A stretch of DNA of 11,859 nucleotides from Candidatus Woesearchaeota archaeon (GTDB lineage: Archaea > Nanobdellota > Nanobdellia > SCGC-AAA011-G17 > JACPIM01), in NCBI GenBank assembly GCA_964513145.1, contig CAZELK010000007.1:1-11859 (forward strand), read 5' to 3'. The position numbers were made by a program, and so were the translations under genes. The notes below the pieces were generated by a model. The model did not search any database and was not told the origin of the DNA. It was given only the letters and a program-made list of their open reading frames with translations. Shown here one piece after another: positions 1-11,859 of the stretch. Positions within the stretch are counted from its first letter, which is position 1. Each line of letters opens with the position of its first letter.

Positions 1-2522
1 TCATAACTTATGCTCCAGTTTGTTCCATTGAATACGTATATATCCCCATCACCAGCAACAGACCTGCCTTGGCCAGCGTAGAGTTTTCCATCATAGACTG
101 CTAAAGAACCAAATCTTGCTTTGGCACCATCAAAGCTTATGCTCCAGGTTTTTGAATCATTAATTAATTCTACTTTTAATTTTCCGTCTGACTTATCCAA
201 AAACACTTTGTAATTTCCAGCATCAATAAAACCTTGTACATAATCTGAAGTAATATTGAAAGTTTTATTTGGATTAAACCAGAATGTTATTGTGAAATTA
301 TCTTTTAAATCAAATTTACTTGAACTTGTTACATTTATGTATTCATTTATACCATTGAAACTCATTGCATTTCCGTATTTTGAGTTTATTGTCCAATTAC
401 AGAATGAAACTGCTGTGCCCCTGTAACAAGAACCATTATTTGCATATTTACTTACATCAACTGCATAAGTTTCATTTTCTCCTATTGCAGAAACATTGTT
501 GAAACCCATCATTAATATTAAACTTAAATTATCATACATTGTGTAATTAGATCCATTCCAATTCCAAATTAATTCTGTTAAATCGTCTGCATTTAATATT
601 GAAACATTTATTTGAACAGATGTATTTGAAGTAAAGGTGTTATTTTCCGGAGTTGGGGCTGTGAAATTTATTGATGGGGGTGTAGCGTCATTGTAACCAT
701 ATTTTGTTATGTTTCCAAAAGTAAATTGAATAGTATGGACTCCAGTTGTTAAAACTTTAGATATCTCTGAAGAAGTATCATTACATTGATAGTTTGGAAT
801 GAATACTGAATCAGCAGACCATTGATAAATTTGTATAATATTTCCACATTTTAATTCCAAGAATGTTAAATCTATATTTGTTATATTTAAATCATTACTC
901 CATGTAGTGCCATTAAATGCAGTAATCGATAAATTTGCTGTTCCAGTTGTGTTAAATAAGACTGTCCAGTTTCCACCTACAACTGGATAACTTTGTATTG
1001 TTAAAATAGTTAAAGATATTTCTACTGAATAATTATCTTCACTTAAATGGGGGGTATTCCAGTAAATTCTATCTATTAAATTATTATTATTTAAATCTTC
1101 ATAAGTTACATTATAGATTAAATCATTAGTTATATCTGTAAGATAAGTTTCGTTTGTTAAATTATCAAAAGTATAATGTAATAATTTAACTTGTTCTTTT
1201 GCTATATCTGGTAGACTTGTATATGATAAAACATTTGAATAATGTAATTCTGAGTCTGATTTTATAGTAATATTTTTTGTCAAAATGTTATTGTCTGTAG
1301 TATTTTCCGCCAACGCTTTTGGTAAAAGGGTTGTTTCAATAGCATAAGGTGCTTTGGTGTAATAGGTTATTTCTAATTTAGTTTCATTTAACTCATCTAC
1401 TTCTAATTTCTTTTTATCTGCTGCTGTTGAAAAAGTATTTTTTAATCTGGCTTTTTCCTTAGTTCCTTCTGTTTCATTTACTATCTTTTCTACTGTTATG
1501 TTTGTAGATTCTATGGGCAATTCTATTGTCTTGTTTTTAGTGTTTAATTTCCATTCTACTGGCTTGTTTATTTCTGCTTTAACCTGTATTAGCTGTTCTG
1601 TGAAATTAGCCAGACTAAGCGTAATATTTGTTAAATTTGTAGAGTTTGTTTCTATAATTGATAGATTTTCTTTAATTATTGGTATAATAAATTTAGTCTC
1701 ATTAGTTAAATTATTTTCTTGGGAAGTCTCATTTGTTTCTGTTTGGTTTGTTTCCTGAGTTTCATTTGATATTTCAGTCAGTAATGTATAATTAAATCTA
1801 GTTATAGTCAGAGCAATATTTCCCTGGACTTCAGTTTTTATAATATTGCTTGAATTTAATTCATTGCATGTTTCTATACATATGTCATTAAAATTAATTC
1901 TTGTATCTATAACTGGCTGTGTTGAAAATGAGTTATTTGCTTCTGACTCGTTTATTTCTTTTAATGGGTTGTTCTGACTTGTTGTCTCATTATGACTTAT
2001 ACTTAATAATGAACTGTCTAAGACTAAATTGTTACCAAGATAGACTTTTATTGATCCATCGCCATCCAGATAACCACTTAGCCTTAAACTAGTTACATTT
2101 TTGTCTAAATCCATGGAGGTGGTTTGATTAAAGACAAGAGTTGAATCTAATATTGAAAGGCCTGTTATTGAAACATCTAAGTAAACATAGGTAAGAGAAA
2201 ACAGCATTAAAAATGAAATTAAGAACAATTCTTTTGATAAATATACCTTATCATAACCATTTATTTTGGCGTCTATTAAGTATAATTTATTTTGCAGTTT
2301 TTCAACTTGCTTAGAATTATAGCTTATAAAATAATTAAATGACTTATTTTTCAATAATTTAGTTAAGGAGTTTTCATAAACAACAGTTGAAATTTTGTTT
2401 TTACTTAAGGATTTGTTTAATTTCGTTAATTTACTTATTACAGAAGATTTTTCTTTATTTAATCTATTTATGCTTCTAATTAATTTTAACTTCTCATTCC
2501 TTAATTTTATGATATTATTCAT
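1..2522 (-). CDS. Large membrane-anchored surface glycoprotein with LamG-like jellyroll and start of a beta-propeller region; 3'-truncated by the window edge
   Basis: Hand translation gives 840 codons with no stop, from ATG 2522 to the window edge. N-terminal Lys/Leu-rich segment, one hydrophobic stretch (LFLISFLMLFSLTYVYL, ~2178-2229) followed by SITG, about 50 N-x-S/T sequons, LamG-type motifs (GNAMSFNGINEYINV...FTITFWFNP), then a 43-aa-period repeat (WSISFDG...SLAVYDGKLYAG...IYVFNGTNWSISY). The ATG overlaps the upstream TGA (ATGA). Confidence 0.9.
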   Translation of the reverse strand, partial: MNNIIKLRNEKLKLIRSINRLNKEKSSVISKLTKLNKSLSKNKISTVVYENSLTKLLKNKSFNYFISYNSKQVEKLQNKLYLIDAKINGYDKVYLSKELFLISFLMLFSLTYVYLDVSITGLSILDSTLVFNQTTSMDLDKNVTSLRLSGYLDGDGSIKVYLGNNLVLDSSLLSISHNETTSQNNPLKEINESEANNSFSTQPVIDTRINFNDICIETCNELNSSNIIKTEVQGNIALTITRFNYTLLTEISNETQETNQTETNETSQENNLTNETKFIIPIIKENLSIIETNSTNLTNITLSLANFTEQLIQVKAEINKPVEWKLNTKNKTIELPIESTNITVEKIVNETEGTKEKARLKNTFSTAADKKKLEVDELNETKLEITYYTKAPYAIETTLLPKALAENTTDNNILTKNITIKSDSELHYSNVLSYTSLPDIAKEQVKLLHYTFDNLTNETYLTDITNDLIYNVTYEDLNNNNLIDRIYWNTPHLSEDNYSVEISLTILTIQSYPVVGGNWTVLFNTTGTANLSITAFNGTTWSNDLNITNIDLTFLELKCGNIIQIYQWSADSVFIPNYQCNDTSSEISKVLTTGVHTIQFTFGNITKYGYNDATPPSINFTAPTPENNTFTSNTSVQINVSILNADDLTELIWNWNGSNYTMYDNLSLILMMGFNNVSAIGENETYAVDVSKYANNGSCYRGTAVSFCNWTINSKYGNAMSFNGINEYINVTSSSKFDLKDNFTITFWFNPNKTFNITSDYVQGFIDAGNYKVFLDKSDGKLKVELINDSKTWSISFDGAKARFGSLAVYDGKLYAGQGRSVAGDGDIYVFNGTNWSISY

Positions 2523-2947
2523 TTCTTTATTGCCCTGCTATATATTGTCCATATTGTCCTATCATCACGCTTCAACAGGACTGCAATATTATGATAAGTA
2601 AGACTGAGATTTTCTTTCATGTATTTTACAATAGATTCCAGAACTGAAAGTTTTAAGTTAGAAAAAATAGAAATTGGGACAAAGAAATCAGATTTTGTAT
2701 CTAATCTATCCTTAAATTTTTTTAAAGAATTTTTATAGGTGGCTATTATCGGGCTTTTAGTTCTGTATAATAGTTTAGAAATTTCTTCATAATTCAAATT
2801 TTTATCTTCTTTTAAATACTTTACAATAGATTCTAGAGGCCCAAGAACTTCATTAAATATAGAAACAGGTATTCTCAGCTCTTTTGATGCTGGTATTTTG
2901 CTTAATTCCTGGTCTTTTAGATTATATTTTTGTTTTATAAATGACAA
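2519..2947 (-). CDS. Tandem-repeat helix-turn-helix DNA-binding protein; true start possibly upstream at 3019
   Basis: Two internal repeats: IPVSIF..LGPLESIVKYLKEDKNLNYEEISKLLYR and VPISIF..LSVLESIVKYMKENLSLTYHNIAVLLKRDDRTIWTIY, each HTH-like. The track start is a TTG; the frame stays open to 3043. Confidence 0.75.
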   Translation of the reverse strand: MSFIKQKYNLKDQELSKIPASKELRIPVSIFNEVLGPLESIVKYLKEDKNLNYEEISKLLYRTKSPIIATYKNSLKKFKDRLDTKSDFFVPISIFSNLKLSVLESIVKYMKENLSLTYHNIAVLLKRDDRTIWTIYSRAIKK

Positions 2948-3026
2948 GAATTCATTGAATAATTCTTCGGTGTTTATACTACTAATATTAATCTCTTTAT
3001 CTTTACTATCTTTAGTAATACAAAGC

Positions 3027-3127
3027 CACCTCTTTTGTAAGTATTATAGAAAATATGTAAGTATTTCTGTATATAAAGTTTTACATTTGTAAGTAAAATT
3101 GAATATATGTAAGTAAATAAGTAAGTA
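3027..3127 (-). promoter_or_regulatory. Archaeal promoter (TTTATATA 3070-3077), SD-like GAGGTG (3027-3032) and five GTAAGTA direct repeats
   Basis: GTAAGTA on + at 3037, 3057, 3089, 3109 and 3121; two 20-bp-spaced pairs flank the TATA box. Confidence 0.6.
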
Positions 3128-3147
3128 AATATATAAGAACTAACTAG

Positions 3148-3184
3148 AAACTTATTAAGACACTAAGTCAGACTAATAACTTAA
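3148..3184. repeat. Boundary repeat copy 1 (AAACTTATTAAGACACTAAGTCAGACT + AATAACTTAA)
   Basis: The 27-bp core recurs at 5454 and 6747 in direct orientation; the match to copy 3 extends to 37 bp. Confidence 0.85.
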
Positions 3185-3368
3185 TAGCCACTTTCAGGCA
3201 GGTATAAGTTTTACAGTACCTTCTTCAAGTTTTATTTGGCTTTCTTGATTTTTTGTTATCAAAAATGATTCTTTTTTATTAAATTTTTTCATAAATTTCT
3301 TTAATGGTTTAATATCTTTATCTTTTATTTTTTCCTGGTATTTTACTTCTATTGATATATTATAAATT
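3173..3368 (-). pseudogene. 3' remnant of a COG1373 AAA+ ATPase, near-identical to the end of 10547..11803
   Basis: 3186-3353 matches 10563-10730 with 7 mismatches in 168 bp. It carries a TGG>TGA nonsense change (3194-3196) and is cut at 3368 by an IS-like end. Confidence 0.92.
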
Positions 3369-3590
3369 CCTAAATTCCCAGTCTATTATTGACTATGATT
3401 AAGTTTCTCTGCTAAATTCTTCTGTTGTCTTGCTAGTTCCCCAATTATAATCTTATTTTCATAAACCTTGCATTTTAGATTTCTCATTGTTAATAATAAT
3501 TCTTCAACAGTATAATGTTTTCCTAATCTGTTTTTCAGATTAATAAATGCAATTAAAGATTATAAATTGCATAAATAAAAATCCTTGAGT
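3369..3590 (-). mobile_element. Remnant of an IS1634-like (IS4 superfamily) transposase C-terminus and candidate right end
   Basis: Removing one base at ~3560 gives TQGFLFMQFISLIAFINLKNRLGKHYTVEELLLTMRNLKCKVYENKIIIGELARQQKNLAEKLNHSQ* (stop 3386-3388), which resembles IS1634-type transposase C-termini from memory. GC-richer CCTAAATTCCCAG at 3369 lies exactly where ATPase homology stops. Confidence 0.55.
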
Positions 3591-3624
3591 GCATTAAAAA
3601 AAGTGTATCTTAATTTTATAATAA

Positions 3625-4293
3625 TTATTGTTTTAAGTTACTTATTCTTTTAACTTGTTCAAAATCTATATCAAATTTTTTTTCAATAAAAACGCCTTTA
3701 AATGAATCGATAAAATTTTTGTTGTTCACTATATTATTTAAATTAATTAAATTTTCATTTATTTTTTCAATATTTCCTATAAAAATAAATTTCTTTATTA
3801 AGTTTAAATCTGTTCCTTTAGCTAATGCAGCTATATCTCTAAAATCAGTTAATCTTCCTGAATGTAATTTTGAAACTATTAAAATTTCTTTATTAGCTAC
3901 CCTTGCTATTATTTCTTTTTCAATCCCAATTATCTTTCTTTTCTCCGAATTCTCAAATAATAAGTTAAAGCTAAAAGAAGCATTTGTTGTCCTTGAAGCT
4001 AAAGCATTTATTAATAAATCCATACTTATTTTATCTTTTTCATATCTCATAAATTTTGAATAATCTAGATTTGCTAAATCCTTGAAACTTGTTTTTTTAA
4101 AGTGATTTTTAATTAAGATAGCTTCAAATTTTGTTAAATCAATCTCTTTTATAACTATATCCGCATCAATAGAAAATCTATGTTTAAATGAAGAAACAGC
4201 ATATCCTCCAACTAGAATGAAATCCAGATTAAAATCTATAAACTTATTTAAAATCTCTAAAATTTCATTTTCTTTTTTTATTAAATCTTCCAT
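3625..4293 (-). CDS. AbiEii/MenT-like nucleotidyltransferase, putative type IV TA toxin
   Basis: ILVGGYAV-x-RFSIDADIV fits hG[GS]x9-13Dh[DE]h; the C-terminal SKLHSGRLTDFRDI fits the K..R..D..D motif of this superfamily. It starts 1 nt after the upstream stop. Confidence 0.8.
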   Translation of the reverse strand: MEDLIKKENEILEILNKFIDFNLDFILVGGYAVSSFKHRFSIDADIVIKEIDLTKFEAILIKNHFKKTSFKDLANLDYSKFMRYEKDKISMDLLINALASRTTNASFSFNLLFENSEKRKIIGIEKEIIARVANKEILIVSKLHSGRLTDFRDIAALAKGTDLNLIKKFIFIGNIEKINENLINLNNIVNNKNFIDSFKGVFIEKKFDIDFEQVKRISNLKQ

Positions 4294-4294
4294 T

Positions 4295-4933
4295 TTATAA
4301 ATAATTAATTTCCTTATATTTAATATTTAATTTTTTATTATAAATTTCTTGAATAATTTCCAAGGCTGGCTGAAAATTATAAATATATTTTTTCATAAAC
4401 TCTATTGTCATATCTAATGGATCAACTGGAGTTTTATTTGTTTCTGCTGCTTTAAAATTGTCTAAAACTTCCGGCATATAAAAAACATTTCTTTTTGAAT
4501 TTATCTTTAAATTTAATTTATTGCAATAATATAAGAATCTTTCATAGTCTAATTTCTTTATTTTAATAAAAATAGGGTAATATTCTTTATATCTTGCTAT
4601 GTTGTATCTACCTTCTGTATAAATATAAACAGCATCTGTTTTTGTGAAACAATATTTTATCCCAAATAAGTCTAAAAATGAGTAATATGATCTAACATCA
4701 TTAAAATTATTTCTAATGAACTTAATAATGGCTTTATAAGTTTTATTATCTTTTTGTAATATAATTCCCTTCCACTTTTCTTTAAATATTCCCTCTTTTA
4801 TTAATTCCTTAATCCATTTGTGAGTCCATCCATATGATAATTTTATTCTTTTAGCAATAGAGTTAATACTATCTTCTTCTCTTGCGCTTATTATAATTTT
4901 TATTACATATGGATTTATTAAATCAATTTTCAT
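4295..4933 (-). CDS. N-terminal winged-HTH protein, putative cognate antitoxin/regulator
   Basis: SINSIAKRIKLSYGWTHKWIKELIKEGIF is a wHTH signature. The C-terminal domain is unassigned. First gene of a two-gene operon with the nucleotidyltransferase. Confidence 0.7.
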   Translation of the reverse strand: MKIDLINPYVIKIIISAREEDSINSIAKRIKLSYGWTHKWIKELIKEGIFKEKWKGIILQKDNKTYKAIIKFIRNNFNDVRSYYSFLDLFGIKYCFTKTDAVYIYTEGRYNIARYKEYYPIFIKIKKLDYERFLYYCNKLNLKINSKRNVFYMPEVLDNFKAAETNKTPVDPLDMTIEFMKKYIYNFQPALEIIQEIYNKKLNIKYKEINYL

Positions 4934-4942
4934 ATTATCATT

Positions 4943-4964
4943 ATAGTGATACTATCTATTTAAA
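4943..4964 (-). promoter_or_regulatory. TATA box TTTAAATA (4957-4964) and inverted repeat ATAGT-gat-ACTAT (4943-4955)
   Basis: The box ends 24 nt before ATG 4933 (leaderless geometry); the inverted repeat lies between the box and the start. Confidence 0.55.
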
Positions 4965-5029
4965 TCTTTTGATAAAATTTTGTTTAGGTAGTATCTGGTT
5001 TTTGCATACTCACTTTATTTAGGTACCTC

Positions 5030-5077
5030 ATAATTTACTTATTTACGAAATATTGTGGTCATTATAATGTACTTATT
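5030..5077 (-). repeat. Orphan, degenerate copy of the promoter region of ATPase 10547..11803
   Basis: ATAATTTACTTATTTACGAAATATTGTGGTCATTATAATGTACTTATT matches 11813-11859 (ATAATGTACTTATTTATAAATATTATGGTCATTATAATGTACTTATT); the TATA element TTTATAAA has become TTTACGAAA. Confidence 0.85.
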
Positions 5078-5453
5078 ATTTAATCTAATTTAAGGATAGT
5101 TATCAATAATTTTAGAAGCAAACTATATTTTGGGAGAACGATTTATTTTACTTAATTGAGTTTTTTTATAACTGATAGCCTAACCAAGCTGCTTTTGATT
5201 TTTTAGACTTCCATAGTTGCGTGCAGAGTCCAGAATATCTCCCCCAATTATTTTTTATTATGAAACCTCTTTATAGGCAATCTGCATAGAGACTTTGAAT
5301 AACTAACTTTTTTTAAATCTTCAATGCTCAAAAATTTAATTCTTGAAAAGATATCTGGGTTTAGTGTATGGAGTTAATGAAATTAATTGAACATAGCTGA
5401 AGAAAAAATCTGGGTGTGATGCAACTGAACGAAACTCTTTTATGTAATGTCTG

Positions 5454-5483
5454 AAACTAATTAAGACATTAAGTCAGACTTAG
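5454..5483. repeat. Boundary repeat copy 2 (AAACTAATTAAGACATTAAGTCAGACTTAG)
   Basis: 25/27 identical to the copy 1 core; contains TAAGTC-A-GACTTA dyad. Confidence 0.85.
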
Positions 5484-5543
5484 TTATATCTTTAATTTGA
5501 ATCTATTATTTCTTTTTTATACAATTTTTCTATATTTTTTTAT

Positions 5544-6383
5544 CTATTTAATCTCTTTAGGTTTTTTCTGCTGAGTTAACCCCAAGAAATTGTTTTTTGA
5601 AATTACCGGCTTTTTTGTTTCTTGTTCCAATTCTTTTCTTGCATTACTAGCTATTTGCCCACCTCTTTGTGCTGCTTCTTTATTTTCTTCAAAGCCGTGA
5701 GCGTCTCTTGTTCTAGCTATATCTGTTGTTGCTTTTTCTCCAAGCATAGTAAATATTAATTCCCAATCATTCATATGATCCCTAAGATTTTGGTTCTTTT
5801 TTTCCAGTCCCTTAAATTTTTTATATTCCTGTACTGTCTTTCCAAATGTAGCTTTGGTAATTTCATTAGTAAGAATAGCAAAATTTATCTCTTCAATAAC
5901 TCCACCTTTCCATTCGTCAGTGAGTTCTTGTCTTATTGCTATTCCTCTGAGTCTTTTTTCTATCCAATCTTTTGAATATCCCTTAAGTTCATAATATTCT
6001 TTAACTCGATTTTGTGCAATTTCCGGGTTTTCTATTTCTTCAACACGTTCATAACCTACTTGTGCAAGCCATAATTTAAAAGGTTCAGCTTTTCTAGATG
6101 GTATGGACTGAATTATTCTAAAAAGAGTTTGTGTATTTGCACAATCTGTTTCATAATATTTTCCATCAGTTGATTGAAGTTTCAGTTGTCGACAAAATGT
6201 CGATAACTCAATACTACTCGACTCCAATTCTCTTTTCTTTAGTCTATACCAGTAATCTTTAGCATCTTCGCTGTCTGTTAAAGCTTTTATAACATCAACT
6301 ACTGAATAAAACCATTCTTCATTATGCCAGATTCTTCTTATTTTTTTATCCTGAAATACCACGAGGGCTTTATCTTTATCCAT
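5544..6383 (-). CDS. Bro-N domain protein (phage antirepressor-like)
   Basis: IRRIWHNEEWFYSVVDVIKAL...YWYRLKKR...CRQLKLQSTDGKYYETD...RIIQSIPSRKAEPFKLWLA is the characteristic pattern of this widespread family. GGGAG lies 14 nt upstream of the ATG. Confidence 0.9.
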   Translation of the reverse strand: MDKDKALVVFQDKKIRRIWHNEEWFYSVVDVIKALTDSEDAKDYWYRLKKRELESSSIELSTFCRQLKLQSTDGKYYETDCANTQTLFRIIQSIPSRKAEPFKLWLAQVGYERVEEIENPEIAQNRVKEYYELKGYSKDWIEKRLRGIAIRQELTDEWKGGVIEEINFAILTNEITKATFGKTVQEYKKFKGLEKKNQNLRDHMNDWELIFTMLGEKATTDIARTRDAHGFEENKEAAQRGGQIASNARKELEQETKKPVISKNNFLGLTQQKKPKEIK

Positions 6384-6406
6384 TTTTATTTAATTTTCTC
6401 CCTTAG

Positions 6407-6562
6407 CTATTCCCATATTCCTCTGCTTTGTAAAAAAACTGCCTTATCAAAATCAATGATCATCAAATTTTTAAGTCCATTATATTTATGATCTAAATAT
6501 TCTTTTTTATAATTAGTTAATTTAATTACACCAGCTTTTATTACTTTAATAACTAACCTAAT
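6407..6562 (-). pseudogene. Short unassigned open frame or gene remnant ((I/M)RLVIKVIKAGVIKLTNYKKEYLDHKYNGLKNLMIIDFDKAVFLQSRGIWE*)
   Basis: 51 open codons starting with ATT 23 nt after a TTTAAATA box (6585-6592); no ATG at that position and no family recognised. Confidence 0.3.
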
Positions 6563-6627
6563 TTTTAGTTATAATCTTTTGAGATATTTAAAATTTTATT
6601 TTAACTATTAAGTAGATCGAGTGTATT

Positions 6628-6687
6628 TTTGAAAGGTTTCCGGTTTATTTGAAAAGTTTTCGGGATTTTTGGAAATTCTTCGGAACT
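6628..6687. repeat. Three imperfect 20-bp tandem units TTTGRAARKTYTYCGG
   Basis: TTTGAAAGGTTTCCGGTTTA / TTTGAAAAGTTTTCGGGATT / TTTGGAAATTCTTCGGAACT at 6628, 6648 and 6668. Confidence 0.7.
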
Positions 6688-6746
6688 CTATTTCTTAAAG
6701 AAATTTAATACCCCATAGTACAAAATTGTTTTATTATTTATTTTAA

Positions 6747-6783
6747 AAACTTATTAAGATATCAAGTCAGACTTAGAACTTAA
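6747..6783. repeat. Boundary repeat copy 3 (AAACTTATTAAGATATCAAGTCAGACT + TAGAACTTAA)
   Basis: Flanks identical to copy 1; the three core differences all fall in the central 6 bp. Confidence 0.85.
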
Positions 6784-6837
6784 CAAATCTGTTATTTCCT
6801 TTAATTTGTTTACAAAGTCTTTTGCTTTTAAAGGAAT
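6754..6837 (-). pseudogene. Stranded C-terminal tail of a second HEPN-like gene, in frame behind the stop of 6838..7380
   Basis: Reads IPLKAKDFVNKLKEITDLLSSKSDLIS*, which parallels the last helix of the intact HEPN (DAEEFITKIEEIL). Confidence 0.5.
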
Positions 6838-7380
6838 TTATCCCAAGATTTCTTCAATCTTTGTAATAAACTCTTCCGCATCTTCCAATGCGCTAACTGC
6901 ATTTTCTTTTGAAATTCCCGGGGTTGCATCATACTGTGCAGTTTCCCTTCTTGTCTTTGTCTGAATCAGTTTATTTATCAAATCTTCACTCAACACATAT
7001 GCTTTAGTAAGTTGTTGAATGTGCTTTGCTTCAAGATTTTTCTGTTTATGGACATAATTTTGTTCTAAAACACAGATTGTGGCAGCATGACTTTTTGATT
7101 TGAATCCAAGCTTTGCCAAAGCAGCTAATGCTGAAACATACATTGAGTAATATGAAACAACAATAACCCATTCGTACATTTCAAAATCATAAGAAAGTGC
7201 AAGTGTTTTCTTAAACTCATCTTGTTCAGAAATCTTGAACATCAGGTTTGCAATAGTAAAATTCTTTCGTGCCTTTTTTAAAAATGGCTTTTCCAGTTTA
7301 GTGTATTCATCATTCTTGAGCAATTGCTCTTTTTGCAGGCATCTCTCAATTTTCTTTTTCAAAAAGTCTGTTCTTGCCAT
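6838..7380 (-). CDS. HEPN domain protein (UPF0332-type), putative toxin of an MNT-HEPN module
   Basis: YYSMYVSALAAL..LGFKSKSH and R-x4-Y (RETAQY) motifs; overlaps the upstream MNT gene by 22 nt. Confidence 0.88.
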   Translation of the reverse strand: MARTDFLKKKIERCLQKEQLLKNDEYTKLEKPFLKKARKNFTIANLMFKISEQDEFKKTLALSYDFEMYEWVIVVSYYSMYVSALAALAKLGFKSKSHAATICVLEQNYVHKQKNLEAKHIQQLTKAYVLSEDLINKLIQTKTRRETAQYDATPGISKENAVSALEDAEEFITKIEEILG

Positions 7381-8009
7381 GATATTAACCTCCAGAATTG
7401 TTCTGAGCCATAGAATGCAACACCATATTCCCTTGCTTCTTTTCCAATATTCATCCCTTTAGATTTTAACATTTTCTCAAATTCTTCCACGTCAGTGATT
7501 ATAGGACTTATTTTAACATTGTGAGAATGCTGGTAACTTGCACATTCTCTCTCTATTTTTTCTCTTACAGCTTTATCTTTAATATTGCTTACAATAAAAA
7601 GTAAATCAACATCTGATGATTTTGTAGCTGTTCCTTTGGCATAGCTCCCAAATAAAACTATTGAATGAAGTGAGGCAGTTATCTGATTCATGAGTTTTAA
7701 CATAATCTCCTCAAGAATTCTTTTTAATTTTTGATTATTTTTATACAATTCTTCTTTTCTTGCTAAATCCACTTCCTGAAGAAAATGACGAGATTGCACG
7801 TTTTCAAGATTGAGGAAACACTGCTTTGAACTTCCTACTTTTTTTACAATAATCGCATTTTTCTCCCCTAATTCGGAAATATGGTTGTATGCTGGACGAT
7901 ATCCTATACTGAGCAATTTTGAGATCTCTAGTATAGTGAATCCCTTACCAAGATTATTTCTCAATAAACCAACAATTTTTAATACAGTTTCGCGTCTCAT
8001 GCTATTCAC
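7359..8009 (-). CDS. wHTH-MNT fusion (minimal nucleotidyltransferase antitoxin); start GTG 8009 or ATG 8000
   Basis: N-terminal FTILEISKLLSIGYRPAYNHISELGEKNAI wHTH; C-terminal LFGSYAKGTATKSSDVDLL = GS-x10-DxD. Confidence 0.9.
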   Translation of the reverse strand: MNSMRRETVLKIVGLLRNNLGKGFTILEISKLLSIGYRPAYNHISELGEKNAIIVKKVGSSKQCFLNLENVQSRHFLQEVDLARKEELYKNNQKLKRILEEIMLKLMNQITASLHSIVLFGSYAKGTATKSSDVDLLFIVSNIKDKAVREKIERECASYQHSHNVKISPIITDVEEFEKMLKSKGMNIGKEAREYGVAFYGSEQFWRLISWQEQTF

Positions 8010-8043
8010 TTAATGAATAATATTATTCACTTTAATATATAAA
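8002..8043 (-). promoter_or_regulatory. TATA box (8036-8043) with a perfect 16-bp palindrome TGAATAATATTATTCA (8014-8029)
   Basis: The palindrome lies between TTTATATA and the start. An overlapping TATTCA-N5-TGAATA dyad sits at 8003-8019. Confidence 0.65.
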
Positions 8044-8151
8044 TGTTTCTTATTTTCTGGCTTTGATGATATGAGAATTCTTATAGCTGTGGAGTGCGCT
8101 CCATTTGTGAGACTGTAGTTAAATGAATAAGACGAAGATTACAAGATCTAC

Positions 8152-9441
8152 CTAATAACCTAAGAGCCATTTCCATAAAGGAATAAATTTAATTTTTTGT
8201 TGCTCTTTCTCAAGATCTTTTGTTATTATTACCATCTCTTTTGTTTTGTTGAAATTCTTTTTAAACTCCAACAATGCCCTAATCTCCCTCTCATCAATAT
8301 TATCAGTATATGAGACATTAATTATACTTAAACTATTATCTTTATTTTTAACTATAAAATCAACTTCATGTTGTTTTGAGTTCTTCCAATAATAAATATT
8401 TTTTATTTTTCTTCGTAGATGAAGAAAGACAGAATTTTCTGCAAGCTTTCCTTCGTCCTTTGAAAATTTAAATGCGACTGAATTTCTTAATCCATTATCT
8501 ATGCAATAAACTTTTTTGGCTTTGGTCTTTTGTTCTTTTATTGAATATGAAAAATGTTCCAATGTAAAAAATAAAAACGCTTCTTTGAAATAAGACATAT
8601 AATCTTTTGCTGAATCATATGCTATTCCCAGAGAATTTCTTATTTTTCTTAATGAAATCTGGCTTGTAAAATTAGTTATTAAAAATAAAGCCAGGTCACT
8701 TGTTTTTTGGTTATTTGAATTGTACCTATCGACTATATCTTTATAAATTATATCGTCAAAATATTGCTTGAGAACTTGTAATTTAAATTGTTCTTCTTTT
8801 AAGACTATCTCTGGAAACCCACCCAACTCCAAATAGTCTACTAATTTATTTATTATAATAATTTTTGATTTCTCTAACAAAATTCCTTTTTCAATATTCT
8901 CTTTCTTCAATTCTACACCCTTAAACAAAAGAAATTCCTGTAAACTCAAAGGGAAAACTTCAAAAGTCAGATTTCTCCCTGTAAGAAGAATGGAGTATTC
9001 TTTTTTTAACAGATAAGAGCAAGATCCAGAAATAACAAATTTATCTTTAGTTTTTAGATCATACTTCTTTTTTACCCATGACTCCCAACCTTCTTTTTTA
9101 TGTATTTCATCAAAAAATATATATGCTTTTTTGTCTGGATTAAGGCTGCCTCTATAGCTTTGATATATCTCGTCCAAAGAATCTTGGGATAATTTTTTGT
9201 CATCAAAATTAACAAATAATATTTGTTTAGTGTCTACTCCTGTTTCCAGAAGTTTAGCTATCATTTGGTACATTATTGTCGATTTACCAGACCTCCTGAC
9301 TCCAGTTATTATTGTTATTTCTTTTATTAAAATAGAATCAACTAAAGAGTCGTATTCTGACCTATGTATACCTGTGAGCTCTTTTAACAGATTTTTATCT
9401 TCCCACCATGGGTTCCATTCGCTTAATTTTTCAAGTTGCAT
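8152..9441 (-). CDS. COG1373 AAA+ ATPase (AAA_14 + DUF4143-type C-terminus)
   Basis: Walker A GVRRSGKS, Walker B YIFFDE, VISGS, LTGR, GGFP, YCIDNGL, HEVDF, and the terminal IPLWKWLL motif. Confidence 0.93.
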   Translation of the reverse strand: MQLEKLSEWNPWWEDKNLLKELTGIHRSEYDSLVDSILIKEITIITGVRRSGKSTIMYQMIAKLLETGVDTKQILFVNFDDKKLSQDSLDEIYQSYRGSLNPDKKAYIFFDEIHKKEGWESWVKKKYDLKTKDKFVISGSCSYLLKKEYSILLTGRNLTFEVFPLSLQEFLLFKGVELKKENIEKGILLEKSKIIIINKLVDYLELGGFPEIVLKEEQFKLQVLKQYFDDIIYKDIVDRYNSNNQKTSDLALFLITNFTSQISLRKIRNSLGIAYDSAKDYMSYFKEAFLFFTLEHFSYSIKEQKTKAKKVYCIDNGLRNSVAFKFSKDEGKLAENSVFLHLRRKIKNIYYWKNSKQHEVDFIVKNKDNSLSIINVSYTDNIDEREIRALLEFKKNFNKTKEMVIITKDLEKEQQKIKFIPLWKWLLGY

Positions 9442-9492
9442 GTTACAAAATAATGTAACTTATTATATTTAAATGTTACGTTTATGTGTAAC
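9442..9492 (-). promoter_or_regulatory. Two GTTAC-N8-GTAAC inverted repeats flanking TTTAAATA (9466-9473)
   Basis: GTTAC-aaaataat-GTAAC at 9442-9459 and GTTAC-gtttatgt-GTAAC at 9475-9492, offset 33 bp. Confidence 0.7.
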
Positions 9493-9656
9493 AAATATTA
9501 TGCTTTAATGTAATAGCCCTTGTATGTTTCATATTAGCGCTTCTTAAATACACTTTCTAATTGATAATAGTATCCCAAATTAAGTACAATAACCCTTTAA
9601 AGCTTCATTTTTTTGGTTTAAGCTATTTTTGGCTCTAAATTAAATACTATCTTCTA

Positions 9657-9692
9657 CTAGAAAGTGTAGTCAACAAACTTTTTTTCTATCAT
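9657..9692 (-). pseudogene. 11-codon stub (MIEKKFVDYTF*) coupled to the AbiEi-like gene; probable scar of a lost toxin gene
   Basis: ATG 9692-9690 overlaps the TGA of 9689..10303 (ATGA), followed by TAG TAG. No ORF follows before 9492. Confidence 0.4.
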
Positions 9693-10303
9693 AACATCTC
9701 TTTTAATCTTTTAATTGTTCTTTTATCAAAACTTTTGGAGTATTTAAGTAGCTTATTCTTTGAACATTTCTCAAATATTTCTTCTGGAACTAATTTAATA
9801 TTCCCATGCTCTTTTAAATAAATAAAGTCAATCATTGTTTTTTCAATATCTGAATATGGCAAGTTTTTATTAAGTATTCCAAATGATGTAAGGTTAGATT
9901 TTATTTTCATGAATTTTATTTTATATCCTAAAATTAAAAATGGTTTGGCTCTAAATATTTTATCATTAATAATGTAGTCAATTGTAAAGTATTCATGCGT
10001 TAGATTGTTAAGCTTTAGAGCAGTTGACAATCCAAAATACCAATTTTTAACTCCTTTTATTTTTAATGCCTCTTTTATAGCTTCGAGATGGTTAATATTA
10101 ATTTTATTTAGTTTTCTTTCTTCTATTGACTTTATATAGAAAATTCCTCTTAAAATTCTTATTAAATATTTATAGTGAGTCAAATATCTTATTGTAACAT
10201 AATAGTCCAGACTGAGTTTTTTGCAATCTACCCTAAGCTCTTCTCTTGTGATAAACTTCTTATCATTCAATTCTAATTTCCTTACTATTAATTTAATAGC
10301 CAT
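9689..10303 (-). CDS. AbiEi-like (COG5340-type) type IV TA antitoxin/transcriptional regulator
   Basis: N-terminal wHTH ending LIRILRGIFYI, then YFGLSTALKLNNLT and SDIEKTMIDFIY, which are AbiEi-like motifs. Confidence 0.8.
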   Translation of the reverse strand: MAIKLIVRKLELNDKKFITREELRVDCKKLSLDYYVTIRYLTHYKYLIRILRGIFYIKSIEERKLNKININHLEAIKEALKIKGVKNWYFGLSTALKLNNLTHEYFTIDYIINDKIFRAKPFLILGYKIKFMKIKSNLTSFGILNKNLPYSDIEKTMIDFIYLKEHGNIKLVPEEIFEKCSKNKLLKYSKSFDKRTIKRLKEML

Positions 10304-10307
10304 ATTG

Positions 10308-10345
10308 TATTGTTATAAAATATATAACAATATGATATTTATAAA
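10308..10345 (-). promoter_or_regulatory. 10-bp inverted repeat TATTGTTATA-N5-TATAACAATA and TATA box TTTATAAATA (10336-10345)
   Basis: Perfect arms at 10308-10317 and 10323-10332, directly upstream of ATG 10303. AbiEi antitoxins are known to autoregulate via promoter inverted repeats. Confidence 0.7.
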
Positions 10346-10546
10346 TTTATCTTTTCTTTAAAAGAAAATTGCTATTTTTTGTTAAGATAAGGCTTGTTTT
10401 GGAGTGAACCCTTTACCAAAATGTAAAACATACCCTGAATAGTCATAGTGCTGCTTCGACCACGAATTTTTCCTTTGGTTAATAATTTTCATAAGTGTTT
10501 TCAATTAAAGCTAGCTAGACTAGTAATTTTTGTTTTTATTTCAAAT

Positions 10547-11803
10547 TTAATTACTTTGCAACAGCCACTTCCAGGCAGGTATAAGTTTTACAGTACCTTC
10601 TTCAAATTTTATTTGACTTTCTTGATTTTTTGTTATCAAAAATGATTCTTTTTTATTAAATTTTTTCATAAATTTCTTTAATGGCTTAATATCCTCATCT
10701 TTTATTTTTTCCTGGTATTTTACTCCTATTGGGATATCATTATAAATTATATCTATTTCATTTCCATTTTTCCAGAAACTTCTTGCCTGGACATGATTTA
10801 CTATTAATGTTTCAATTATTTTTCCAAAAAAAGCTTCGTCTATATTTGATTTATACAAATAGATCAAGCTATTATCTGTTGGGTAAGCCCTCTTCTTTTT
10901 CCTTAATGAAGCCAGACTTCCTTTTCTGTAATTTCCAAGAATATTAATCAAAAAGCTTTCTTTCAAATAATTAAAATAATCCTTTACTACCCGCCTATCT
11001 TTTCCAAATTGTTTACTTATAGATTGATAGTCTATATACGCCCCGGGATTTGTTGCTATAATTTCAAGAAGAATTCGAAGAAATCCTGGATCTTCTATTT
11101 TAAACATCATTGGAATATCTTTATAGATTATTTTGTCAACTACCAAAGAAGATATATATTCTTTAAAATCCCTACTACTTTCAATTTCAAATGTCTCTGG
11201 AAAACCGCCTTTTTCTGCAAATTTAATAAAAAAAGAATTTATTTTTGTTTCATACTTGAAATCCTCTTCCTTTATTCCATTAAATCTCAAATATTCTTTA
11301 AAAGTAAAGGTTGCCAATGTGAATTCAAAGATTCTGCCTGCCAATGTTTCTTTAGTTTTTTTCCTTATGAAAAGAGACTCAGAACCAGCAATAATAAATT
11401 TTAATTTTGGATATAGATCATAATACTTTTTCAACTCGTTTTCCCAATTGCTACATTTTTGAATTTCATCCAAAAACACATAAATTTTCTCTTCTCTTAG
11501 GTCTTTTTTATGAAATTCTTTATATGCTTCCATAACCTCATTAAGTTTTACAAGGGTTTCGTCAAATGAAAAAAATAGAATGTTCTCTGGTGAAATGTTT
11601 TTGTCTATTAATTCTTTAATTAGCTGATAAATTATTGTTGTTTTTCCGACCCTTCGAATGCCAACTAAGGCTAAAATAAACCTATTTTTTAAATGACTTT
11701 CTATATCTCGGTATATGTTTCTCTTAAAAGGCAATGCTAATTCAATATCAACTTTTCTTCTAGTCCACCAATGATTAAATTCTTCTAATTTTGATTTTTC
11801 CAT
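10547..11803 (-). CDS. COG1373 AAA+ ATPase (AAA_14 + DUF4143-type C-terminus)
   Basis: Walker A GIRRVGKT, Walker B YVFLDE, IAGSES, LAGR, GGFPE, YPTDNSL, NEIDI, and terminal IPAWKWLL. Confidence 0.93.
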   Translation of the reverse strand: MEKSKLEEFNHWWTRRKVDIELALPFKRNIYRDIESHLKNRFILALVGIRRVGKTTIIYQLIKELIDKNISPENILFFSFDETLVKLNEVMEAYKEFHKKDLREEKIYVFLDEIQKCSNWENELKKYYDLYPKLKFIIAGSESLFIRKKTKETLAGRIFEFTLATFTFKEYLRFNGIKEEDFKYETKINSFFIKFAEKGGFPETFEIESSRDFKEYISSLVVDKIIYKDIPMMFKIEDPGFLRILLEIIATNPGAYIDYQSISKQFGKDRRVVKDYFNYLKESFLINILGNYRKGSLASLRKKKRAYPTDNSLIYLYKSNIDEAFFGKIIETLIVNHVQARSFWKNGNEIDIIYNDIPIGVKYQEKIKDEDIKPLKKFMKKFNKKESFLITKNQESQIKFEEGTVKLIPAWKWLLQSN

Positions 11804-11805
11804 AT

Positions 11806-11854
11806 GTACAATATAATGTACTTATTTATAAATATTATGGTCATTATAATGTAC
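11806..11854 (-). promoter_or_regulatory. Two G(T/G)(A/T)C-N8-GTAC sites flanking TTTATAAA (11825-11832)
   Basis: GTAC-aatataat-GTAC at 11806-11821 and GGTC-attataat-GTAC at 11839-11854, offset 33 bp; TATAATGTACTTATT is repeated exactly. Confidence 0.6.
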
Positions 11855-11859
11855 TTATT

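Follow-up and report, generated by a model that had tools for sequence, protein, structure and literature searches.

A short direct repeat in a defence-gene island of a DPANN-type archaeon and its possible origin as recombinational junction scars

In Neisseria, the so-called minimal mobile elements consist of defence or accessory genes that occupy a slot between conserved genes and are exchanged by recombination, and the cis-mobilisable elements (CIMEs) of streptococci keep the att sites of a known integrase family. The present analysis concerns a short direct repeat found three times in the first 11,859 bases (the window hereafter) of contig C7 (50.8 kb), which belongs to the 977-kb genome (G000; 29% G+C, 18 contigs) of a DPANN-type archaeon with neighbouring genes for prefoldin, SepF, ZPR1, Dph2 and ProRS. 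An original prediction, made from the letters of the window, took this repeat for a site resembling dif/pdif that would delimit the units of an archaeal gene-cassette array. A dif/Xer site comprises imperfect inverted-repeat arms of about 11 bp around a 6-bp spacer, and archaeal dif has two near-perfect inverted arms of 11 bp for one XerA and is highly conserved across an order (PMC2958812). Archaeal att blocks range from 8 to over 100 bp, and elements that integrated in tandem into a single locus, or lost their integrase once integrated, are documented (PMC8371274).

We consider it somewhat probable that the copies are junction scars and short homology tracts of recombinational insertions at a borrowed gene-end sequence, and that they constitute neither an Xer- or attC-like site nor a regular array. 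This reading is built on what was observed: the ancestral block in single copy, sister species whose site has no island, longer repeats flanking a Bro-N gene, remnants of an ATPase tail and promoter, and unrelated repeats at relatives of the Bro-N unit. We infer the mechanism of the crossovers and favour homologous recombination over 30–60 nt, an enzyme acting in trans being less likely. The block would originally have been a single-copy sequence, lying after the stop codon of a conserved AAA+/wHTH gene and before the control region of a surface-protein operon, and this slot would then have grown into a defence-gene island of about 12 kb, the block being multiplied as a by-product of each addition or duplication.

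The repeat, its copies and the ancestral site

Three near-identical copies of 27 bp, all on the + strand, lie at 3148–3174, 5454–5480 and 6747–6773, with spacings of 2306 and 1293 nt. Their co-orientation and spacing agree with the original prediction, and shuffled versions of the window give 0 matches to the motif. Since the − strand carries every gene in the window, each copy stands 3' of a gene or gene remnant. Copy 1 (3141–3188, core 3148–3174), the ancestral syntenic copy, follows on the gene strand directly after the last codons of an ATPase remnant, while copy 2 with its extension (5454–5516) and copy 3 with its extension (6747–6803) form the downstream and upstream direct repeats, respectively, of a Bro-N cassette, copy 3 beginning 35 nt past the stop codon of a HEPN gene. 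Only about 33–40 nt are common to all three copies, among which 4 of the 27 positions vary. The original prediction had recognised here conserved arms around a variable core, a pattern that is statistically not established, given that three of the four variable positions fall inside some 6-bp window with P = 0.25, and with P = 0.025 only if that window is preset. Caution is therefore due, since such an appearance can come from three substitutions.

A profile of the three copies and the two orthologous copies described below was searched genome-wide, and its next-best match (E = 0.017) was a diverged fourth copy that had not entered the profile. Copy 4 (C7:12023–12055) follows immediately upon the stop codon of an intact COG1373 ATPase gene and lies a short way beyond the 100-N scaffold gap (C7:11860–11959) at which the window ends. 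The gap itself interrupts tandem promoter repeats upstream of another ATPase gene at 10547–11803 (window positions 11804–11859), and the promoter-repeat unit picks up again beyond it, leading into copy 4. Scatter of the motif over ordinary gene ends or promoters, which would have marked it as a terminator or a transcription-factor site, was not encountered; the profile and scans of the whole 977-kb genome allowing up to 6 mismatches recovered only the copies at the locus, plus copy 4. Candidate degenerate copies behind the ATPase genes 8152–9441 (p = 0.6) and 10547–11803 (p = 0.1) are insignificant, and the profile also misses them. Moreover, a half copy at 5082–5099 comprises the left arm and part of the centre only, its similarity stopping within the centre of the motif.

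The length of the common block varies with the pair of copies compared. In comparisons of flanks, copies 2 and 3 have a further 15 of 17 nt in common on the gene-proximal side (p = 0.017), and copies 1 and 4 both come after an ATPase gene tail that they share (p = 0.0005), whereas the downstream flanks of all copies are mutually unrelated.

The ancestral state of the site can be read from two sister species of the same genus (G002 and G003), in which the surface-protein operon and its control region are accompanied by one copy of the motif each (orthologous single copies at L020 4757–4783 and L019 ~2735–2762) and by no 12-kb island. The single copy touches the stop codon of a 300-aa AAA+/wHTH gene in G002 and sits 12 nt from it in G003, and beyond this gene follow prefoldin, SepF, ZPR1, Dph2 and ProRS. 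In G000, the AAA+/wHTH orthologue (C7:15358–16266) has the same downstream gene order and is placed 12.2 kb from copy 1; thus, about 12.2 kb have been added between its stop codon and copy 1. That copies mark junctions of added DNA, as had been proposed, is borne out by this single-copy, island-free state of the sister species and by the pair of copies that brackets a horizontally mobile single-gene cassette.

The ancestral neighbour of copy 1 is the control region of the regulator/surface-protein operon (3030–3147, − strand), with GTAAGTA direct repeats and a TATA box, which is 80% identical to the two sister species as against 67–69% for the adjacent coding DNA. The 9-nt right arm of the block (TCTGACTTA when read on the gene strand) does not vary among G000, G002 and G003, in which it equals the operator repeats and the TATA box, and therefore the ancestral copy may itself have a local function of a regulatory kind. 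The G003 copy differs at 3 of 19 specified positions.

This conservation leads to a different explanation, that the block is a cis-acting protein-binding element selected at every copy, serving either as a distal operator of the tandem-HTH regulator (2519–3029 region) or as a transcription stop or insulator separating co-oriented genes. The invariant right arm would be expected of such an element, as would the recognisable variant kept directly after the stop codon of the same AAA+/wHTH gene in another genus (G009), the location of each copy past the 3' end of a gene and in front of the following promoter, and the two small dyads within the block. Nevertheless, we regard a selected element at every copy as quite unlikely, because the distance to the next start codon is inconsistent (~120, 520 and 363 nt), the block is absent from other gene borders of the island, neither G002 nor G003 conserves the right-arm dyad, and in the pair formed by copies 1 and 4 the ATPase tail next to the motif is better conserved than the motif itself. 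In addition, the block forms no hairpin and a five-T run follows copy 3 only, with no consistent T-run at the copies, and G008, a genome of a sister genus, has the operator repeats without the block.

The motif was sought in the genome, 60 relatives, 16 family genomes, IMG/VR, metagenomes and about 185,000 species genomes. Neither the other 13 family genomes, in which matches with 3 mismatches occur at the control rate, nor the 60 relatives yielded a real copy; one of these 3-mismatch matches (G009:C34:5998–6020), at the start of the AAA+/wHTH gene and on the other strand, was taken as chance. Among the species genomes the motif is confined to this genus, the other matches being chance occurrences in bacteria (three genomes of unrelated phyla). 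In scans that required exact arms, IMG/VR gave no match with two patterns and the metagenomes gave only two chance matches, which lie in DNA of higher G+C, one within a long open reading frame (ORF). An origin-recognition box, suggested by the possibility that the AAA+/wHTH protein is Orc-like, was set aside in view of the single copy in the sister species and the lack of resemblance to such boxes, and a tRNA or RNA-family origin of the block was discarded, since scans of the window yielded no Rfam family or tRNA match.

The Bro-N/DinD cassette and the unit behind copy 1

The direct repeats of 57–63 nt formed by copies 3 and 2 (6747–6803 and 5454–5516) enclose a 1230-nt unit (5517–6746, − strand) that contains a Bro-N/DinD-like gene (5544–6383) and its 363-nt leader, with an iteron-like promoter-proximal element, and no recombinase. 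The gene is matched by Pfam Bro-N (2.8e-11) and by the PADLOC model PDC-S13 (PDLC04920; 1e-117). The gene alone (5534–6391) is 88% identical at the DNA level to a locus of another genus (G008:C14), whereas shared DNA in the rest of the window reaches 66–70%, which points to a recent arrival of the Bro-N gene by transfer. The original prediction called for a comparison of strains for gain, loss or reordering of units exactly at the repeat; the island is absent at the syntenic site of G002 and G003, and the similarity of the Bro-N gene to G008:C14 ends at the gene ends and not at the motif.

Two relatives of the cassette at other loci have flanking repeats of their own. At the G008 Bro-N locus on C14 (L021), 47-nt repeats that correspond to the start of cbf5 are found at 3288–3334 and 4642–4688, with a spacing of 1354 nt, and a Bro-N paralogue of the same genome (L048) is bordered by 106-nt repeats comprising a promoter and ATG (2393–2498 and 3683–3788; spacing 1290 nt). 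Neither of them resembles the motif of the window. These make three independent cases, one here and two in a sister genus, of Bro-N/DinD cassettes with duplicated target flanks, and no shared transposon-like ends are visible by eye among the three repeat-flanked units. The cassette of the window, carrying a "borrowed" copy of its target, would have entered by a Campbell-type single crossover, and the 57–63-nt repeats at copies 3 and 2 would be the outcome of that event.

Some further features of these loci were observed. Downstream of the Bro-N cassette in L021 (4790–4925), cbf5 seems, by eye, to be broken by two insertions of ~19–20 nt, one after the SGPT codons and the other ~90 nt further, which could be mini-introns or errors of assembly or frameshift. 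The leader of the Bro-N gene in the window is iteron-like between 6482 and 6685, with a period of ~21 nt and a richness in words of the TTCCGGA/TTCGGAA type; similar elements occur upstream of tnpB (C7:13819–13973), at C7:25650–25740, in G001, G003 and G008, and also in the leader of the repeat-flanked G008 unit (L048 ~2500–2590).

The 2.3-kb unit between copies 2 and 1 appears to have a different history. Copy 1 is preceded by a 94% identical copy of the last 181 nt of the ATPase gene 10547–11803: the segment 3183–3363 (− strand; identical at 94% to 10560–10740) is what is left of the 3' end of a COG1373 (AAA_14/DUF4143) ATPase gene and contains a premature stop; by tblastn this remnant shows 90% identity to the ATPase 10547–11803, and a conserved Trp codon in it is now a stop. 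At the other side of the unit, 5030–5099 (+ strand) is a remnant of an ATPase upstream region that ends in the half copy 5082–5099, and its positions 5030–5098 are 94% identical to C7:11961–12028, which continues into copy 4. The tail and the upstream remnant bracket a different two-gene module (3625–4933, − strand), composed of a gene with a weak Pfam match to DUF6036/NTP_transf_5 nucleotidyltransferases and its partner, that occupies the place of the lost ATPase body. Modules found at unrelated loci of G003, G008 and G009 share 72–74% identity with it, in the coding part only and without flanking repeats, and no ATPase remnants surround the module in G003 and G008. Between the half copy and copy 2, 354 nt (5100–5453) contain no ORF and gave no relatives.

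From the ATPase tail before copy 1 and the promoter remnant at 5030–5098, it follows that the 2.3-kb unit is most readily taken as a duplicated ATPase cassette whose body was replaced by the two-gene module, that is, a hollowed-out duplicate ending in the same block. Copy 4 would be this same block behind an intact ATPase gene, and segmental duplication of the ATPase cassettes would have copied the block once more. The possibility that the block is a generic 3' element of COG1373 ATPase genes was rejected, since no flank of this kind accompanies eight further paralogues of the genome or three from relatives.

Two similarities were recorded in the DNA adjoining the ATPase remnant. The 58 nt at 3362–3419, next to its truncation point, are 88% identical to C12:17989–18046, and 3363–3584 is 71% identical to G008:C32; this DNA looks like the tail of a small gene with a conserved downstream element.

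Site architecture, recombinases and the order of events

The structure of the block gives little sign of a site for a tyrosine recombinase. As the original prediction had already noted, the arms are not inverted repeats of each other, and only 3 of 11 positions match between the left arm and the reverse complement of the right arm. In copies 1 and 3 the best dyad, whatever its geometry, does not beat shuffled sequences (equalled by 278 and 413 of 500 shuffles, respectively). A hairpin of the attC or terminator type was likewise dismissed, neither strand folding better than shuffles, with fold energies of −1.5 to −4.9 kcal/mol and z values from −1.5 to +0.5. The absence of a recombinase gene from the window was confirmed, and neither such a gene nor a remnant of one was found in the ~12 kb of the island, so the search for a nearby XerA or integrase came back empty. 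Matches to PF00589 are confined to contigs C1 and C12, on which three tyrosine recombinase genes are encoded (regions C12:12296–13159, C1:20589–21116 and C1:22700–23314), and the genome has no serine recombinase. With no dyad beyond shuffles and no recombinase or remnant in the island, the likeness to dif/pdif that had been proposed is not sustained.

The proposed gene-cassette array fares no better, because four module borders in the island have no copy (behind the ATPase genes 10547–11803 and 8152–9441, the AbiEi-like gene and the gene 3625–4293), the length of the block varies, and the relatives of the modules share the coding part only. Homology and duplication are preferred over one enzyme acting on one site precisely because block length differs from pair to pair and most gene borders in the island are without a copy.

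Nevertheless, several observations weigh against junction scars formed by homology, and some of them would suit a true att or cassette site better. Between copy 1 and the ancestor of copies 2 and 3, 24–25 of 27 positions are identical, and yet the flanks are unrelated on both sides. In every copy the similarity ends within 1–2 nt of a common downstream edge, and two independent junctions that coincide in this way are as expected of a site-specific crossover. The half copy 5082–5099 breaks in the centre of the motif, and copy 3 combines a centre like that of copy 4 with a left arm like that of copy 1, as if crossovers fell inside the block. Moreover, a tract of 27–33 nt is short for efficient homologous recombination, the reading does not account for the first acquisition of the "borrowed" target copy by the cassette, two of five assessable Bro-N loci have no flanking repeats, and the three tyrosine recombinases encoded elsewhere in the genome could act in trans.

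Under the alternative of a true att or cassette site, which is the original prediction in a general form, a recombinase supplied in trans, either one of those three or one since lost from the island, would insert small elements devoid of an integrase, and the copies would be the att junctions of tandem decayed elements. The copies are indeed direct repeats bordering DNA that is missing from the sister species, and their common downstream edge, the half site broken in its centre, the hybrid appearance of copy 3 and the tyrosine recombinase genes of the genome would all fit, as would the att blocks, tandem integration and integrase loss documented in archaea (PMC8371274). We nonetheless hold this alternative to be unlikely. 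The 12-kb island has no recombinase or remnant, the genome contains no other copy of the block, for instance beside a recombinase gene, and no att-like repeats surround its tyrosine recombinase genes. The arms lack inverted symmetry, block length varies between pairs of copies, related Bro-N cassettes have unrelated flanking repeats, the AAA+/wHTH stop codon, where the island has its far end, is not accompanied by a copy, and the block was not found on the viral or metagenomic contigs searched with exact arms. Junction scars at a borrowed gene end are thus preferred here.

A bolder idea, to which we give only a small chance of being right, is that small defence cassettes of DPANN archaea, Bro-N/DinD and others, are exchanged as circles that carry a short gene-end block and re-enter at it, without a dedicated enzyme or by means of a recombinase in trans, the locus with its three to four co-oriented junction copies being a tandem array of them. 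If true, this would constitute an archaeal functional analogue of an integron array with a different site logic. The significance of the locus would rise only with a demonstration of circles or of recombination at the block that depends on an enzyme.

The island and its place among known systems

The island holds genes that match the defence-candidate models PDC-S01, PDC-S13, PDC-S09/M05 and AbiEi. Three COG1373 (AAA_14/DUF4143) ATPases (PADLOC PDC-S01) and the 181-nt tail of a fourth are accompanied by a nucleotidyltransferase/HEPN pair, an AbiEi-like gene, a second, weak nucleotidyltransferase pair and the Bro-N/DinD-like gene, and beyond the window the island includes a TnpB element. The HEPN gene (6838–7380) and its nucleotidyltransferase partner (7359–8009) form a pair on the − strand (6838–8009), and the rest of the island within the window (8152–11803, − strand), consisting of the ATPase gene 8152–9441, the AbiEi-like gene 9689–10303 and the ATPase gene 10547–11803, has no motif copy at its borders.

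The AbiEi-like gene encodes 204 aa, matches AbiEi antitoxin models at 6e-45 and has no adjacent AbiEii partner, and the weak nucleotidyltransferase pair at 3625–4933 could be a two-gene system of a related type. Beyond the window, an ORF of ~57 codons (C7:15028–15200), flanked by the TnpB element and the AAA+/wHTH gene, resembles a membrane protein by eye and is not present at that place in G002 or G003. An intergenic element of ~55 nt with a G+C-rich palindrome (8036–8090) recurs on C3 and C6 with 82–87% identity, its part 8059–8090 having a 97% match in G001. Finally, inside the ORF of the surface protein, ~32–38 nt at 1303–1340 have many matches of 87–97% identity in several genera (G009 with seven, G019 with four, and C9 of this genome with one), and the coding DNA around them is only 66–78% identical, making this short stretch unusually conserved within surface-protein genes.

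If junction scars at a borrowed gene end are the right explanation, the locus would show by a clear example how a very small archaeal genome builds up a defence island, in one slot beside a conserved gene, through repeated insertions and duplications that each copy the same short gene-end sequence.

Regarding the known systems, dif is a site present once per chromosome, at the replication terminus, and strongly conserved among related genomes. An 11-6-11-like layout can be drawn on the block as in dif/pdif, the copies are co-oriented and the sister species have a single copy, but only 3 of 11 arm positions match and most genomes of the family lack the site. The co-oriented genes with a repeat at 3' ends recall an attC array, from which the locus differs in lacking a folded single-strand site, an integron integrase or attI and, at most gene borders, the repeat itself. 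With the att repeats of archaea it has in common direct repeats of tens of bp that border inserted DNA next to a conserved gene end; however, no integrase, split integrase or remnant accompanies them, scans of IMG/VR and metagenomes for exact arms found no copy on a free element, and the far end has no repeat.

The closest match is with the repeat-flanked Bro-N/DinD (PDC-S13) cassettes and, more broadly, with cis-mobilisable elements and defence-island hot spots. Unlike CIMEs, this locus has no linked enzyme of a known integrase family. It resembles minimal mobile elements and hot spots in its variable set of defence genes in one slot between two conserved genes, although the crossover there falls in the conserved flanking genes, whereas here a short intergenic block is duplicated internally. 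The Bro-N/DinD cassettes of other loci agree with the one described here in a size of ~1.2 kb, one defence-candidate gene, no recombinase and a duplicated neighbouring gene end, with other duplicated targets at those other loci; what sets this locus apart is that its duplicated target has also been repeated by other events in the island, which gives it the look of an array.

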